Below are positions 329 to 15,839 of a DNA stretch of 16,746 nucleotides, one piece after another; the first letter of the stretch is position 1, and each line of letters begins with the position of its first letter. A program made the translations under genes and the position numbers. Source of the DNA: a virus (taxonomy: Duplodnaviria > Heunggongvirae > Uroviricota > Caudoviricetes); the IMG/VR virus record IMGVR_UViG_2740892439_000018, one strand, 5' to 3'. The notes beneath the pieces are model-generated. The model did not search any database and was not told the DNA's origin. It was given only the letters and a program-made list of their open reading frames with translations.

Positions 329-625
329 ATGTTCGAACAACGCGTAAATTCTGACGTACTGACCGTTTCTACCGTTAACTCTCAGGATCAGGTAACCCAA
401 AAACCCCTGCGTGACTCGGTTAAACAGGCACTGAAGAACTATTTTGCTCAACTGAATGGTCAGGATGTGAATGACCTCTATGAGCTGGTACTGGCTGAAG
501 TAGAACAGCCCCTGTTGGACATGGTGATGCAATACACCCGTGGTAACCAGACCCGTGCTGCGCTGATGATGGGCATCAACCGTGGTACGCTGCGTAAAAA
601 ATTGAAAAAATACGGCATGAACTAA
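329..625 (+). CDS. fis: DNA-binding protein Fis (nucleoid-associated factor for inversion stimulation)
   Basis: 98-aa product [21 protein letters not shown]...[17 protein letters not shown] recognised as E. coli Fis with C-terminal HTH; ATG 329, TAA 623-625. Confidence 0.97.
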
Positions 626-688
626 TTCAGGTTAGCTAAATGCTTGATTAAAAAGGCGCTACTCGGCATGGGGAAGCGCCTTTTTTAT
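609..688. repeat. attL: left copy of perfect 80-bp direct repeat (fis 3' end plus terminator)
   Basis: 80/80 identity with 15760-15839, checked base by base; flanking bases differ at 608/15759 and 689/15840. Covers the last 17 nt of fis and the downstream hairpin. Confidence 0.88.
650..688 (+). terminator. fis rho-independent terminator (copy inside attL)
   Basis: Stem AGGCGCT (654-660) / AGCGCCT (675-681) followed by TTTTTT (681-686); A-tract upstream. Confidence 0.7.
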
Positions 689-7717: not shown

Positions 7718-7964
7718 GAAGGTTTTCTCGTATTGGTTAAGATTCAGGACGTGAAACCAACACGGAGGGAGCGCCGCCCGACACTCTCGGCATCTCGCAG
7801 ATCAACCCGGCATCGCGCAGGGGATCGGACGGCAACAGTGGCGGCTCACGTCTGAGTGCCACTATTTAAGATATGGATCAAAAAATTGATGTAAATAAGG
7901 TATTTTTGTTACGAACAGTCTTGAATGTTAACACACAAATAATTTACAAAAATGCTGATAAACT

Positions 7965-8741
7965 ATGGAGATTCAAGTGACAAAAGAAATTCTTGCTGTT
8001 CCTGGGATGCGACCATCCCCATTGTTCAAAAGGACTTATAAATTAGTTCGGGAGATTGACGAAAGATTAACCAAACTGATTCATAGATGGCGATTTTTCA
8101 ATGCAGGCCCCCCCATGAAAGTTACTGCATATGATGGAACAGAAATATGCTATCAAGGTTTGGCATTTAAAGGTACTCCCGTTCAAATTTTTTGGAATGG
8201 TTTTATCGATCCTTACATTGAAAATAACTCAGAAATTGTTTTAGAGCAGACCTCCGCGTTAGCAATTGAATGTCAATTCTCAATAGAGGAGTCAATCGAG
8301 GAGGCTAAATTACTATTACTTGTGATGATTCGCAGGCTTTACTATGAAATGGCCGAAACAGATAAAATATTAAGAGGTGATGGGTTTTCCTTCCCAGAAA
8401 AAAAAGACGTTAGTGGTTATATTGAAAGTATCTCTCAAAAAATCATAGAACATGCTGAAATTGAAAAGCTAAAAAAAACGCATCCAAAACAAAACATATT
8501 CAACATAGCTACTGTAAATAGCCAATACGTACAACTTGGTACAAATAACAATATTAATATACAAGAGCTCTCTGAGTTCTTCTCAAAAATTGCATCAACT
8601 GGTGAAAAAGAAATTATTACTCTCTCAAAAAACCTTCTTAAGAAGGCCTACTCAAAAAACTTACTGAGTAAAGAAAACTATGAAGCTCTAATATCAAACC
8701 TTAACACACAGACAAAATACACTTTCAAATCTACTAGTTAA
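7965..8741 (+). CDS. Hypothetical protein (258 aa), AT-rich accessory gene, unrecognised family
   Basis: Long ORF on the strand opposite to every other island gene, visibly AT-rich; possible alternative GTG start at 7977 preceded by GGAG. C-terminal module NIFNIATVNSQYVQLGTNNNINIQEL...KNLLKK shared with the next gene. Confidence 0.75.
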   Translation: MEIQVTKEILAVPGMRPSPLFKRTYKLVREIDERLTKLIHRWRFFNAGPPMKVTAYDGTEICYQGLAFKGTPVQIFWNGFIDPYIENNSEIVLEQTSALAIECQFSIEESIEEAKLLLLVMIRRLYYEMAETDKILRGDGFSFPEKKDVSGYIESISQKIIEHAEIEKLKKTHPKQNIFNIATVNSQYVQLGTNNNINIQELSEFFSKIASTGEKEIITLSKNLLKKAYSKNLLSKENYEALISNLNTQTKYTFKSTS

Positions 8742-8770
8742 ACGCAAAAGCGATCACGAGGAGCAACATA

Positions 8771-9280
8771 ATGGATCTTAACGTCATGGCATATCCAGAA
8801 AAATTCACAATCGCAGGAGTTGAATACAAGGGGAAAAGAAACTCAGCTGAAAAAAAAGTGCTAATCCCTTATACTGAAGAACCAGATATTAATATTGGAG
8901 ATGAAATCACTCAAAAACTAGGGAAGGGGGAAATAATATTAAAAGTAATTGATATGTCATTTTTACCAGGAGGTACACTCAATGTTGGTACTAATCACCC
9001 TCACATGCTTACATTAAAAGTCGAGAATCTGACTGCTAATGAACATAAACCAAAACAATCTAGCCAAAATACATTTAACATTGGTAACATATCCGGTACA
9101 CAGGTTCAACTCGGTGAGCATAACAATCTTATTGTAAATCTCAGCATAACTGAACTTGTTGAAAAAGTTTCTCAATCACAAGATCCTCAGGCAAAAAATT
9201 TGCTTAAGGATTTACTAAATAATAGTACGGTAGCCAGTCTCGTTGGTGCTGGTGCGTCCGCCTTGTTAACAATGCTTTGA
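8771..9280 (+). CDS. Hypothetical protein (169 aa), AT-rich accessory gene with hydrophobic C-terminal tail
   Basis: Strong GAGGAG Shine-Dalgarno 7 nt before ATG 8771, 29 nt after the previous stop; motif NTFNIGNISGTQVQLGEHNNLIVNLS...KNLLKD parallels the upstream protein; ends ...STVASLVGAGASALLTML. Confidence 0.8.
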   Translation: MDLNVMAYPEKFTIAGVEYKGKRNSAEKKVLIPYTEEPDINIGDEITQKLGKGEIILKVIDMSFLPGGTLNVGTNHPHMLTLKVENLTANEHKPKQSSQNTFNIGNISGTQVQLGEHNNLIVNLSITELVEKVSQSQDPQAKNLLKDLLNNSTVASLVGAGASALLTML

Positions 9281-9281
9281 G

Positions 9282-9312
9282 TATATGGCCTGGCAAAGAG
9301 CCAGGCCATATA
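9282..9312. terminator. Bidirectional hairpin terminator between convergent genes
   Basis: Perfect 13-bp stem TATATGGCCTGGC (9282-9294) / GCCAGGCCATATA (9300-9312), 5-nt loop; AT-rich flanks; between the stop at 9280 (+) and the stop at 9315 (-). Confidence 0.7.
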
Positions 9313-9314
9313 AT

Positions 9315-9575
9315 TCATTTCTCACTCATCCAATTAGGAGGTAGTGGCATTTTTTTCCTTAAAACCTGCAAATGCTCAATCAAAACATTAACCTGCTCTT
9401 GATTTGTTGCAAGGATTTCATCTGATAGCGTGCTACGAATAAAATCATGATGGTCAATCCACAGTAAACCACCATTTGCAAGGGCCTGACGGTACTGAGT
9501 GGTAGGCATTGAAGCAATATCATGAAGTCCGAATTGATCAAAATAATTGTTTATTTCATGCGTCAGAATCGGCAT
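9315..9575 (-). CDS. Hypothetical protein (86 aa)
   Basis: ORF with AGGAAG Shine-Dalgarno upstream of ATG 9575; lies just downstream of the iteron region on the minus strand; no recognised family. Confidence 0.55.
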   Translation of the reverse strand: MPILTHEINNYFDQFGLHDIASMPTTQYRQALANGGLLWIDHHDFIRSTLSDEILATNQEQVNVLIEHLQVLRKKMPLPPNWMSEK

Positions 9576-9723
9576 TATTTCTTCCTATTTTATCTAATTT
9601 ATCTAATTTGTAGTCATTTTTAACCAGTATTCGGTCAAATCAAGCGCGTGTTTTTGTGTGCTTTACTGTCATAGTCTTTATCTCACAGCAGTAAATTAAA
9701 ATTTTTGCGTTTTAACCCTTCAC

Positions 9724-9946
9724 CTGTTCACCTTTTGATATTTTATCTTTTAATTCATAAGGTTAAGGGGTGAACAGTTTCACAAAAACTATTCACCAAC
9801 TGTTCACCACTGTTCACCCTTGAAGCTCAATAAACAATCAAAAAGGTGAACAGTGAATAGTTTGGTGAACAGTTCATAAATAACTGTTCACCCTATAATA
9901 TACTGATATAAAAGATATTTATGACAGGGTGAACAGTGGTGAACAG
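9724..9946. repeat. Iteron array (9 copies of GGTGAACAG / CTGTTCACC in both orientations); putative island replication origin
   Basis: Forward copies at 9769, 9845, 9864, 9928, 9938; reverse copies at 9724, 9800, 9810, 9884; embedded in AT-rich DNA immediately 3' of the primase-helicase stop (9960-9962). Confidence 0.72.
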
Positions 9947-12079: not shown

Positions 12080-12400
12080 TTATCCCCGATTTGAATCAGT
12101 ATTCGCTTTCTTTATGGCATTTAATGCATCTGTGGCATTTTCAATGGTGCACCGTAACGAAATATCAAAATGTCCAAGCATTGCCAGTAACAAACCGATA
12201 TTACCCATATCAATGCGCATGGCCTTTGCGTCATATTCCTCATTTTCTGACGCATGCCACATCAGGCTACCAATTGACGCAACAGCCATTGATATATTGT
12301 CAGTAGCCCCATCCGCAGCGGAATAAACCTTTTTAGCAATATCATGCTCACAGTTAAAATGCGGATTAATCAGGTACTGGTAATTTGACATATCAGGCAT
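12080..12400 (-). CDS. Hypothetical protein (106 aa)
   Basis: Strong AGGAGGTG Shine-Dalgarno 5 nt before ATG 12400; stop 6 nt before the next gene start; unrecognised family. Confidence 0.65.
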   Translation of the reverse strand: MPDMSNYQYLINPHFNCEHDIAKKVYSAADGATDNISMAVASIGSLMWHASENEEYDAKAMRIDMGNIGLLLAMLGHFDISLRCTIENATDALNAIKKANTDSNRG

Positions 12401-12596
12401 GGCGCACCTCCTTGCGGATACGGGCGGTGAACACCATCACGCAGCCAGCCGGGGATTGCTGGCGGGCTTCCTGTTCACTGGTGGCCACGATGGTAATCAC
12501 ACGCGGTTTTGCGGCGCTCAGGGCGATAAAACGCCAGGTGAATTTATTCAGGTTGTGCGAATCCCGCCCTCGCGGGTGTGTGGTATGATTTAACAT
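12393..12596 (-). CDS. Hypothetical small protein (67 aa), first gene of the minus-strand early operon
   Basis: C-terminal portion of a longer, mostly non-protein-like ORF-track frame; own GAGG Shine-Dalgarno before ATG 12596; stop overlaps the next gene start by 8 nt. Competing plus-strand ORFs make this uncertain. Confidence 0.4.
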   Translation of the reverse strand: MLNHTTHPRGRDSHNLNKFTWRFIALSAAKPRVITIVATSEQEARQQSPAGCVMVFTARIRKEVRHA

Positions 12597-12677
12597 AGCT
12601 ACCTCGATAATCTTGCTATCGTTGGTGGTTAGACGCCCTGCATGTGTTGCGAGCACTGCGGGGCGTTGCTCTTTTAG

Positions 12678-12723
12678 GTGTATTTCACCTTTGCTTTTTA
12701 ATTTACTCACTGGTGAAATACAC
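12678..12723. promoter_or_regulatory. Perfect 12-bp inverted repeat GTGTATTTCACC ... GGTGAAATACAC with 22-bp spacer; candidate operator in divergent control region
   Basis: Verified by reverse complement; located between the divergent starts at 12596 (-) and 12790 (+); a TATACT -10-like hexamer lies at 12754-12759. Confidence 0.45.
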
Positions 12724-12789
12724 TTCAAGCCTTTTTTTATCATTTTTTTTGCGTATACTGACATACACCAATTTTTAGGAGATCCAGAA

Positions 12790-12969
12790 ATGGCAACTGG
12801 TGCAAAGAACGCAAAATCACAAATGACAACTGTCAGAATCCCACATGAAGTAATGGATGATATTGAGCAACTTAAAGAACCTGGCGAAAGTACCGCTGGT
12901 TTTTTAGTTACTGCCGCAAAAGGCGAGATCAAACGCCGCCAGCGGCGCAAGGCCAAAGAGCAGGAGTAA
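12790..12969 (+). CDS. Putative ribbon-helix-helix (CopG/Arc-like) DNA-binding protein (59 aa)
   Basis: AGGAG Shine-Dalgarno 8 nt before ATG 12790; TTVRIPHEVMDDIEQL... fits the RHH beta-strand plus helix pattern; basic C-terminus. Confidence 0.5.
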   Translation: MATGAKNAKSQMTTVRIPHEVMDDIEQLKEPGESTAGFLVTAAKGEIKRRQRRKAKEQE

Positions 12970-13315: not shown

Positions 13316-13537
13316 TTACGCCGATTTCAGTTGTGCTTTGGGTTGACGATCAAGCCAATCATTAACCTCAGACAGCAACCAACCGACAGAACGAGCCCCC
13401 AACTGACGACGGGCTGGAAACACCCCTTTCCTTTCCATCATATAACGCGTCGTTCGGCAAATACCGGTAAGGCGTCGGCATTCCTCCTCACGAATGATGC
13501 GATCAAATTGGTCTTGCGATGATTTAACTTTGCTCAT
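13316..13537 (-). CDS. alpA: AlpA-family transcriptional regulator / excisionase-like HTH protein
   Basis: 73-aa product from ATG 13537: ...QFDRIIREEECRRLTGICRTTRYMMERKGVFPARRQLGARSVGWLLSEVNDWL matches the AlpA/prophage CP4-57 regulator pattern. ORF-track upstream extension not supported. Confidence 0.85.
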   Translation of the reverse strand: MSKVKSSQDQFDRIIREEECRRLTGICRTTRYMMERKGVFPARRQLGARSVGWLLSEVNDWLDRQPKAQLKSA

Positions 13538-13599
13538 ATGGATATGCCCTCGTTTATTATCGTTCGAGAGCATATTGATAATATGCTTAGAATATTTAG

Positions 13600-13630
13600 G
13601 TGATATCACATATTTTATATGTGATATCAC
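13600..13630. promoter_or_regulatory. Two copies of the 10-bp palindrome GTGATATCAC spaced 21 bp centre to centre, upstream of alpA; candidate operator
   Basis: Palindromes at 13600-13609 and 13621-13630 with AT-rich spacer ATATTTTATAT; the second overlaps the stop codon of the upstream 245-aa gene. Confidence 0.5.
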
Positions 13631-14364
13631 GTTCGCCCTAAGTATTTAGCCCACGTATTCTTATCTGTTGCGGGAAGAAACACCCCTTTCATCGCTGCCG
13701 CAGCCTCTAAAACAGCGATCACTTTAGCAACTGGAGCAGTTCCAATATCTATATCATCCATTTCTGGAATTAGTTTGATTAATGCAGGGATCAACTCAGC
13801 TTTCTTCGCAAGAGTTTTTGGCGATTCTCCCATTTTTCTTCCAGGCATGGTTCCAACATCTTTGATATGCTCCAAATCCTTAGCCATTACACATAAAAAC
13901 CTTCTGTCGATCTCAATAGCCCCATCACTCATAATTTGACATTCCCAGTTTTCTGATTCAGGACGAGTTGAAAAAAAAGATGATACTATCCTTGCATCAT
14001 TGCCAATAAATTCAAGTTCAGAAAAACTTTCCCGATTTAGATAGAAGAAACCGCAAAAATTCTTTGCAAGATAAGAAGCCACACCAAAATAATTTACCCA
14101 TTCAAAATCGCTACCAACAGGCTTCATCCCTGTAATTACCCAGCGATCCCCTTGCAACATCCCTCCAGAATCAACATCAATATTTTCAACTAATGATTTT
14201 GGTATAACTAGCGATTTACATGGATGACAGTTTGGAAAATAAACAGAAATATTCAAAGCACCTATAGCAGCAAAATGATATATATCATTAAGCGTACATC
14301 CCAGCTTCTTTGCTGCTTCAGGCAATGGATAATATATACGCTCAGGGATGCTTATCTTTTTCAT
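13627..14364 (-). CDS. Hypothetical protein (245 aa), AT-rich, translationally coupled to int; possible N-terminal HTH
   Basis: ATG (14364-14362) overlaps the int stop TGA (14363-14361); visibly lower GC than int; N-terminal LPEAAKKLGCTLNDIYHFAAIGAL resembles an excisionase/AlpA-type HTH; remainder unrecognised. Confidence 0.78.
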   Translation of the reverse strand: MKKISIPERIYYPLPEAAKKLGCTLNDIYHFAAIGALNISVYFPNCHPCKSLVIPKSLVENIDVDSGGMLQGDRWVITGMKPVGSDFEWVNYFGVASYLAKNFCGFFYLNRESFSELEFIGNDARIVSSFFSTRPESENWECQIMSDGAIEIDRRFLCVMAKDLEHIKDVGTMPGRKMGESPKTLAKKAELIPALIKLIPEMDDIDIGTAPVAKVIAVLEAAAAMKGVFLPATDKNTWAKYLGRT

Positions 14365-15584: not shown

Positions 15585-15610
15585 AGAAAACCTTAATTCA
15601 TATTGAAAAC

Positions 15611-15632
15611 TGACTGCACCACTGACTGCACA
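15611..15632. repeat. 22-bp arm-type repeat TGACTGCACCACTGACTGCACA (right arm, int promoter region)
   Basis: Exact copy of 693-714; lies 27 nt upstream of the int start and 127 bp inside attR. Confidence 0.6.
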
Positions 15633-15759: not shown

Positions 15760-15839
15760 AATACGGCATGAACTAATTCAGGTTAGCTAAATGCTTGATT
15801 AAAAAGGCGCTACTCGGCATGGGGAAGCGCCTTTTTTAT
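15760..15839. repeat. attR: right copy of perfect 80-bp direct repeat
   Basis: Identical to 609-688; contains a second copy of the fis 3' end and terminator hairpin (about 15801-15839) just upstream of yhdJ. Confidence 0.88.

Follow-up and report, generated by a model that had tools for sequence, protein, structure and literature searches.

A protein with a hypervariable middle, encoded between int and alpA, is a candidate helper-responsive regulator of Escherichia coli phage satellites

Introduction

How do Gram-negative phage-inducible chromosomal islands (PICIs) detect the phages that mobilize them? In these satellites, transcription of the master activator gene alpA is switched on by helper phages and not by the SOS response, with neither the phage inducer nor any repressor identified so far (PMC6092414). 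The prototype capsid-forming PICI, EcCIEDL933, is induced by some lambdoid phages only (bioRxiv 10.1101/2022.09.08.507074). Here, we analyze a 16,746-nt stretch of DNA (IMGVR_UViG_2740892439_000018, hereafter the window) that contains a PICI in which an additional gene occupies the slot between the integrase gene (int) and alpA. The product of this open reading frame (ORF), a 245–amino acid protein coupled to int, is referred to as X. The locus thus raises a specific question: what does a protein probably produced with the integrase do immediately upstream of the gene that controls the island?

We tentatively propose that X is made along with Int and acts as a DNA-binding switch at the alpA promoter, with a variable domain that senses a helper phage. 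A regulator of this promoter best fits four features taken together: the ends of X are constant and DNA-binding–like while its middle is hypervariable, its gene would be co-expressed with int, the family is confined to satellites, and an operator-like element lies at a fixed distance from alpA. A first-pass annotation of the window, made from the sequence alone, had offered three roles for the int-proximal gene: a helper-sensing regulator, a directionality factor fused to an effector, or an anti-phage protein. The data favor the first of these, on the basis of features that the annotation did not contain, namely the palindromes before alpA, the hypervariable middle domain, and the conserved C-terminal domain.

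An exchangeable gene coupled to the integrase

X is the product of a real gene, since its homologs form 17 clusters, with identities down to 36%, and an exhaustive profile search recovered 322 family representatives at 50% clustering. Its start codon (ATG, 14362-14364) shares an ATGA with the stop codon of int (TGA, 14361-14363), and a Shine-Dalgarno–like AAGG/GGTAG lies within int, 8 to 12 nt 5' of the X ATG. The order int, X, alpA holds without exception in the ~25 loci examined, which come from Escherichia, Klebsiella, Serratia, Kosakonia, and metagenomes. In every such locus with upstream sequence available and an integrase of 405 to 407 amino acids, the X start and the int stop share 4 nt, or in rare cases share 1 nt or stand 2 nt apart. 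Conservation of this junction, first noticed in the window, fits co-expression and translational coupling.

The islands that carry X vary both in type (capsid-forming PICIs, classical PICIs with TerS, and islands with an AAA_25 replicase) and in attachment site (fis/acrS, cspD/clpS, rcnR, and a Serratia site). The family is tied to a single clade of integrases of 405 to 407 amino acids, 57 to 69% identical to one another. Distant family members sit beside a different integrase, separated from int by a 95-nt gap and without overlap.

We find that X is more AT-rich than its neighbors, as the first-pass annotation had stated: 38.6% GC, against 44% for int and 49% for alpA (GC fraction and GC3, the fraction at third codon positions: X, 0.386 and 0.289; int, 0.442 and 0.424; alpA, 0.491 and 0.446). 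In 15 of 15 related loci, the X homolog lies 6 to 17 points below its own int, and low GC is therefore a property of the whole family.

X also moves independently of its neighbors, which supports the separate acquisition suggested earlier on compositional grounds. Two islands at the rcnR site have 100% identical integrases and 99% identical AlpA proteins, with X alleles that are 38% identical. One of these alleles is ~90% identical to an allele from the cspD/clpS site over the first 40 residues and 100% identical over the last 75, and the two middles are unrelated. Other rcnR-site PICIs, with integrases 96% identical, have a DUF6387 gene in the slot instead of X (L013, 8192-9046; L014, 8208-9062). 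The DUF6387 proteins have 284 to 287 amino acids, their genes are equally AT-rich (33.6% GC), and their start codons also overlap the int stop by 4 nt. Co-evolution of the slot gene with int is ruled out by the rcnR-site alleles. Still further PICIs, whose int and alpA are of another type, have an empty slot; in L047 and L048, int is followed by a 420-bp gap and then alpA.

DUF6387 (PF19924) was considered as a distant homolog of X and rejected (hhalign probability of 1% against the X-family profile; no Pfam match); the two are unrelated in sequence. It is a second uncharacterized family tied to int and alpA. A DUF6387 gene also adjoins alpA in a genomic island that is not a PICI (ICEKp258.2, PMC10763509).

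These exchanges bear directly on the possibility that X is an integrase accessory or recombination directionality factor, with an excisionase-like N-terminus on att DNA and the remainder modulating Int. Such a role would explain the translational coupling of X to int, and it agrees with the Xis/RdfS/TorI/AlpA-type fold of the N-terminal domain, with the overlap of X start and int stop in nearly all loci, and with the restriction of the family to one integrase clade. We nonetheless regard it as very unlikely. Identical integrases are found with 38%-identical X alleles, and 96% identical integrases with DUF6387; the palindromic boxes described below are separated from the att repeat by ~2.1 kb, a distance too great for an arm site; AlpA alone triggers excision of EcCICFT073 (PMC6092414); and distant X-family members are separated from int by the 95-nt gap. 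The related proposal of a directionality factor fused to an effector is doubtful, as X has no recognizable effector (nuclease, nucleoside triphosphatase, membrane, or toxin domain) and a given int can function alongside slot genes that are unrelated to each other.

Constant ends and a hypervariable middle

A structure model of X, made with AlphaFold2 (AF2) from the family alignment (pLDDT 83), comprises three modules. The N-terminal module is predicted to be a winged helix-turn-helix (HTH), the middle module is beta-rich, and the C-terminal module, which follows a linker modeled with low confidence (residues 171-178), has three helices. Conservation differs greatly among the modules: in 71 representatives of the family, pairwise identity averages 0.43 in the N-terminal module and 0.39 in the C-terminal module but 0.15 in the middle. 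The middle module is a candidate specificity or sensor domain.

The C-terminal module of the window's protein, designated type A, is always located at the extreme C-terminus. Approximately half of the X relatives listed share the N-terminal module and have different C-termini. One of these alternatives, type B, is probably a remote homolog of type A, judging from profile comparison (hhalign probability 67%).

The first ~35 residues had initially been read as an excisionase/AlpA-type HTH. At the level of predicted fold, the excisionase reading holds: the N-terminal module has a MerR/Xis-type fold, of the kind seen in Xis, RdfS, TorI, and AlpA. The model agrees with the definition of such a winged HTH, in which ~50 residues form a beta-strand, two helices, and a beta-hairpin wing that superpose on the DNA-binding domains of Xis or MerR. 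The protein is not, however, detectably an AlpA homolog. Comparison of the X N-terminus with the AlpA proteins of the same islands gave an hhalign probability of 0.2%, and 15 N-terminal fragments matched no Pfam family at E values up to 10, PF05930 and PF12728 included. Full-length X had no Pfam match at E values up to 0.1, and neither the full protein nor any module had a usable sequence match in Pfam, PHROGs, PADLOC, NCBIfam, or the PDB. The sole PHROG match is weak, covers residues 5-52, and has no assigned function. PADLOC-DB 2.0 returned 0 families at E values up to 0.1, a search of 5.8 billion proteins returned no named homolog, and a profile search with the C-terminal domain alone returned fragments of the family and nothing else. 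Among these searches, we found no homology of the full-length protein to a known satellite core protein lacking a DNA-binding fold.

Comparison with known winged-helix proteins shows where X departs from them. Like the excisionase/AlpA/Vis/TorI/RdfS group, X is encoded beside a P4-type integrase; unlike that group, it has no Pfam match, has ~190 extra residues, and is followed by a separate, bona fide alpA. The predicted architecture also resembles that of MerR regulators, in which an N-terminal winged HTH precedes a ligand- or effector-binding part and the DNA targets are palindromic. In X, by contrast, a beta-rich domain takes the place of the long dimerization helix after the HTH, and there is no Pfam MerR match. 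Furthermore, its boxes do not, as far as can be judged, lie in a 19- to 20-bp spacer between −35 and −10 as MerR targets do.

Paired palindromes in front of alpA

The DNA at the 3' end of X contains two copies of the palindrome GTGATATCAC (consensus GTGAWWTCAC), and the stop codon of X falls inside one of these perfect palindromes. A scan of the window allowing up to one mismatch found three matches, two of them exact (the two boxes), against 0.4 expected. In 13 aligned loci, whose X proteins have identities down to 31%, the GTGA and TCAC positions are invariant. The 11-nt spacer between the boxes and the DNA after box 2 show no conservation in the same loci, and the distance from box 2 to a hairpin in the alpA leader is 26 nt (twice 27) in 13 of 13.

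The boxes go with the type-A C-terminus. They were found neither in islands with DUF6387 in the slot nor in X homologs with a type-B C-terminus, and distant type-A–like variants beside a different integrase have GTGA...TCAC dyads at the stop codon, with wider spacing. AlpA itself was rejected as the box-binding protein. An AlpA that is 91% identical, with an unchanged HTH, occurs in the DUF6387 islands that lack the boxes, and the boxes are therefore probably not AlpA sites.

An exact search for the double box among 2.9 million viral contigs (IMG/VR) returned 11 contigs. Eight of these have an X-family member, and two hits are coding repeats in tail-fiber genes. The remaining contig is L035 (IMGVR_UViG_2588253800_000018, 2165-2195), a P2-like prophage in which an ORF6N/P22_AR_C antirepressor gene is followed by GGTGATATCAC-N11-GTGATATCACC and then by a T-run. 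This double box may serve as a terminator or as a shared binding site.

The L035 example raises another explanation: that the boxes form an RNA stem-loop marking or stabilizing the 3' end of the int-X mRNA, or are the site of a host or phage factor, and that the role of X is unrelated to alpA. The two boxes can indeed pair (a 14-bp stem of −17.7 kcal/mol in the window; 92% of cells paired), and in L035 they precede a T-run after an unrelated gene. However, no U-tract follows the boxes in X-family loci, and a second hairpin is already present before alpA. Pairing has decayed in the Klebsiella group and in L019, where the GTGA/TC half-sites persist. In addition, covariation between the boxes does not exceed that in shuffled controls, in contrast to the true hairpin 26 nt downstream. 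This difference suggests sequence-specific recognition rather than a purely structural role, although it is not proof, and we consider the RNA or host-factor explanation improbable.

The leader hairpin lies directly 5' of the alpA ATG (13535-13537), and its 3' arm carries the alpA Shine-Dalgarno sequence. Compensatory changes occur in 6 of its 8 pairs across 14 islands, DUF6387 islands included, and a T-run often comes after it. The hairpin may act as a terminator or insulator of the int-slot operon, or hide the alpA ribosome-binding site on read-through transcripts. A consensus scan found no sigma-70–type promoter on the alpA strand between X and alpA in the window, and likewise none in L005 or L013, a result compatible with a factor-dependent promoter. 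A −10-like element noticed by eye before the hairpin, relative to which the boxes would be centered near −40 and −61, was dropped because the consensus scanner found no promoter.

Restriction to satellites and a possible defensive role

Searches of 50,697 phage records and 72,556 plasmids yielded no homolog of the X family. The absence of the family from these collections and from PADLOC fits a role in the satellite life cycle. Of 5,426 complete E. coli genomes, ~84 have a family member, whereas 1,444 have pieces of the island backbone, and a contig scan of species-representative genomes found the family in three representatives. X is thus ruled out as a universal PICI core component, a conclusion reinforced by the PICIs that have no slot gene at all. 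We found no mention of the family in the literature searched, which did not take in the 2022 Cell paper on PICI immune systems.

The anti-phage role proposed at first pass remains a live rival, although we think it rather unlikely. In this case, X would be defense, abortive-infection, or exclusion cargo in the int-proximal (5') hotspot of PICIs, with the variable middle recognizing a phage component and the conserved domains executing or regulating the response. Several observations are what such cargo would show. The slot is variable, with DUF6387 or divergent alleles beside integrases that are 96% or 100% identical; both types of occupant are strongly AT-rich; the middle domain is hypervariable; and X is optional among related islands. 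PICI immune systems, moreover, sit at the 5' or 3' ends and beside pri (PMC11364771). Systems of this kind, such as Tai, resemble X in accessory position and variable content, and they too were not recognized by PADLOC or DefenseFinder before testing (PMC11364771).

On the other hand, Tai and most such satellite systems are shared with phages and mostly phage-borne (PMC11364771), whereas X homologs are missing from the phage and plasmid records. X has neither a recognizable effector domain nor a PADLOC match. A cis element at a fixed distance before alpA and the strict int-X-alpA synteny are also unexpected for free cargo. The defensive role could overlap with a regulatory one if the response to the phage is induction of the island.

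A model for helper sensing

Returning to the alpA switch that we favor, X would be a satellite-specific, modular DNA-binding protein that is produced with the integrase during quiescence of the island and most likely acts at the alpA promoter. One of its conserved end domains would bind the two GTGAWWTCAC palindromes, probably as a dimer. The candidate favored by co-occurrence with the boxes is the C-terminal three-helix domain; the alternative is the N-terminal MerR/Xis-like winged HTH. At a spacing of 21 bp, the boxes would present the same helix face immediately 5' of the alpA leader. The hypervariable middle would bind a protein of the incoming or induced helper, changing occupancy or activity at the boxes. 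Expression of alpA, and hence excision, replication, and packaging of the PICI, would then be coupled to a particular helper, and a swap of the middle domain or of the whole cassette would allow different phages to trigger the island. The most specific version of this model, in which X is a plug-in sensor that is made with Int, sits on GTGAWWTCAC operators, recognizes one specific phage protein through its hypervariable domain, and switches alpA on, is possible but somewhat doubtful.

Several points weigh against a helper-sensing switch. In sequence searches, neither end domain of X resembles a DNA-binding family; comparison of folds gave no significant match for the C-terminal domain; and neither end appeared strongly basic by a by-eye count of residues. 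The boxes are complementary to each other, and the L035 double box has no X-family member nearby. The association of the boxes with the type-A C-terminus could reflect plain physical linkage, because box 1 overlaps the X stop codon. Defense cargo would be just as likely to show AT-richness, swapped cassettes, and a hypervariable domain. Finally, prototype PICIs appear to answer their helpers without a slot gene; in EcCICFT073, for example, alpA seems to follow int directly, as inferred from gene numbering (PMC6092414). Given these slotless PICIs and the low frequency of the family among E. coli genomes, X is not a general solution to helper detection.

The closest functional analogs known in kind are satellite master regulators that sense helper proteins, and the architecture, position, and cis element of X are new among them. 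Stl and Rpr, from Staphylococcus aureus pathogenicity islands (SaPIs) and other Gram-positive PICIs, are likewise satellite-encoded and are expressed with int in the quiescent state, as we propose for X. They combine an N-terminal HTH with a highly divergent domain, which in Stl binds a specific helper protein (PMC6092414, PMC9638917); the predicted HTH fold and hypervariable middle of X would be the counterparts. Allelic diversity in Stl and Rpr sets helper range (PMC6092414, PMC9638917), and by analogy the alleles of X may do the same.

X has no sequence similarity to Stl or Rpr, no named homolog, and no sequence match in the PDB. The PDB holds structures of Stl. The gene arrangement also differs: X lies downstream of int and is co-directional with alpA, with candidate operators at its own 3' end, whereas Stl and Rpr are divergent from str/xis. 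Unlike Stl and Rpr, X has a second conserved domain at its C-terminus and is optional among related islands. Because Gram-negative PICIs are driven by the activator AlpA, X could be an activator, a co-activator, or a repressor.

The X locus is a concrete candidate for the means by which Gram-negative PICIs, including cross-genus capsid-forming ones, detect their helpers. If the model is correct, X would connect helper infection to alpA activation in one clade of islands, a step that has lacked an explanation since 2018. Exchange of cassettes would then re-program which phages induce a satellite, and the line between satellite induction and defense-type phage sensing would be blurred. The natural series of alleles, with identical flanks and different middle domains, could be used to address helper specificity. 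If X instead turns out to act in defense, it would be a new single-gene system confined to satellites. Either way, the family merits a name and an entry in Pfam.

The island and its other features

The window consists of E. coli chromosomal DNA and matches the corresponding locus of strain MS6198 at 100% identity. The island that it contains is 15.2 kb long and sits between fis and yhdJ (Table 1). Its exact 80-bp att repeat duplicates the 3' end of fis with its terminator, and an intact fis is thereby regenerated on integration. The minus-strand genes int, X, alpA, an Icd-like gene, a DUF4222 gene, and a D5-type primase gene are followed by the island's own major capsid protein, prohead protease, portal, connector, HNH, TerS, and TerL genes. 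This content (int, alpA, and primase; its own capsid and packaging set; no tail genes; a length of ~15 kb; and att repeats) agrees with the definition of capsid-forming PICIs (bioRxiv 10.1101/2022.09.08.507074). This E. coli element is a capsid-forming PICI with fis as its insertion site, and fis-integrated PICIs are a known, abundant group (PMC10111431). A 434–amino acid int ORF with a TTG start, present in the program-made ORF list, is an over-extension, and int was taken as 407 amino acids.

Table 1. Positions of the features of the window discussed in the text.
Feature	Position	Strand	Remarks
X N-terminal module, residues 8-55	14200..14343	minus	Predicted winged HTH, MerR/excisionase type
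X middle module, residues 56-170	13855..14199	minus	Beta-rich, hypervariable
X C-terminal module, residues 182-245	13630..13821	minus	Conserved, three-helix; ends KNTWAKYLGR (type A)
X ORF, stop codon included	13627..14364	minus	245 codons; annotated hypothetical protein WP_001553506.1; homologs
ATGA, int stop and X start	14361..14364	minus	4-nt overlap; kept across relatives
Box 1, GTGATATCAC palindrome	13621..13630	none	Overlaps X stop codon
Box 2, GTGATATCAC palindrome	13600..13609	none	21 bp from box 1; 26 nt 5' of alpA leader hairpin
alpA leader hairpin, ATGCTCTCG-12 nt-CGAGGGCAT	13544..13573	minus	−14.1 kcal/mol; compensatory changes
alpA, AlpA-family activator, 73 amino acids	13316..13537	minus	PF05930, 3.4e-14
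int, tyrosine integrase, 407 amino acids	14361..15584	minus	Protein-family matches, annotation
attR-side 80-bp direct repeat (fis 3' end and terminator)	609..688	none	Exact repeat
attL-side 80-bp direct repeat, upstream of int	15760..15839	none	Exact repeat

A derivative of the island in strain MS 69-1 (L012) is deleted for int, X, yhdJ-acrS, and part of acrE. Between the att repeat and int, 25 to 50 nt 5' of the int start, the window has a tandem ACTGACTGCAC repeat (15609-15619 and 15621-15631), which could be an arm-type or regulatory site.

Downstream of alpA, the Icd-like gene (12393-12596, minus strand) is divergent from a YlcI/YnfO-like gene (12790-12969, plus strand). The zone that they define (12393-12969) resembles the immunity or "Bro" zone of Gram-negative PICIs. 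An Rfam scan of the window found no family at gathering score, C4/isrK-type RNAs included, and thus there is no detectable P4-like C4/CI immunity RNA beside the Icd-like gene.

Between the capsid gene and the primase gene lies an AT-rich block (7800-9900, 32 to 39% GC) with three ORFs (7965-8741 and 8771-9280 on the plus strand, 9315-9575 on the minus strand), none of which has a match in Pfam, NCBIfam, or PADLOC. The position of the block is that of the pri-adjacent accessory and immune hotspot described for PICIs (PMC11364771). At the matching position, the related island L013 has a HEPN-domain gene.
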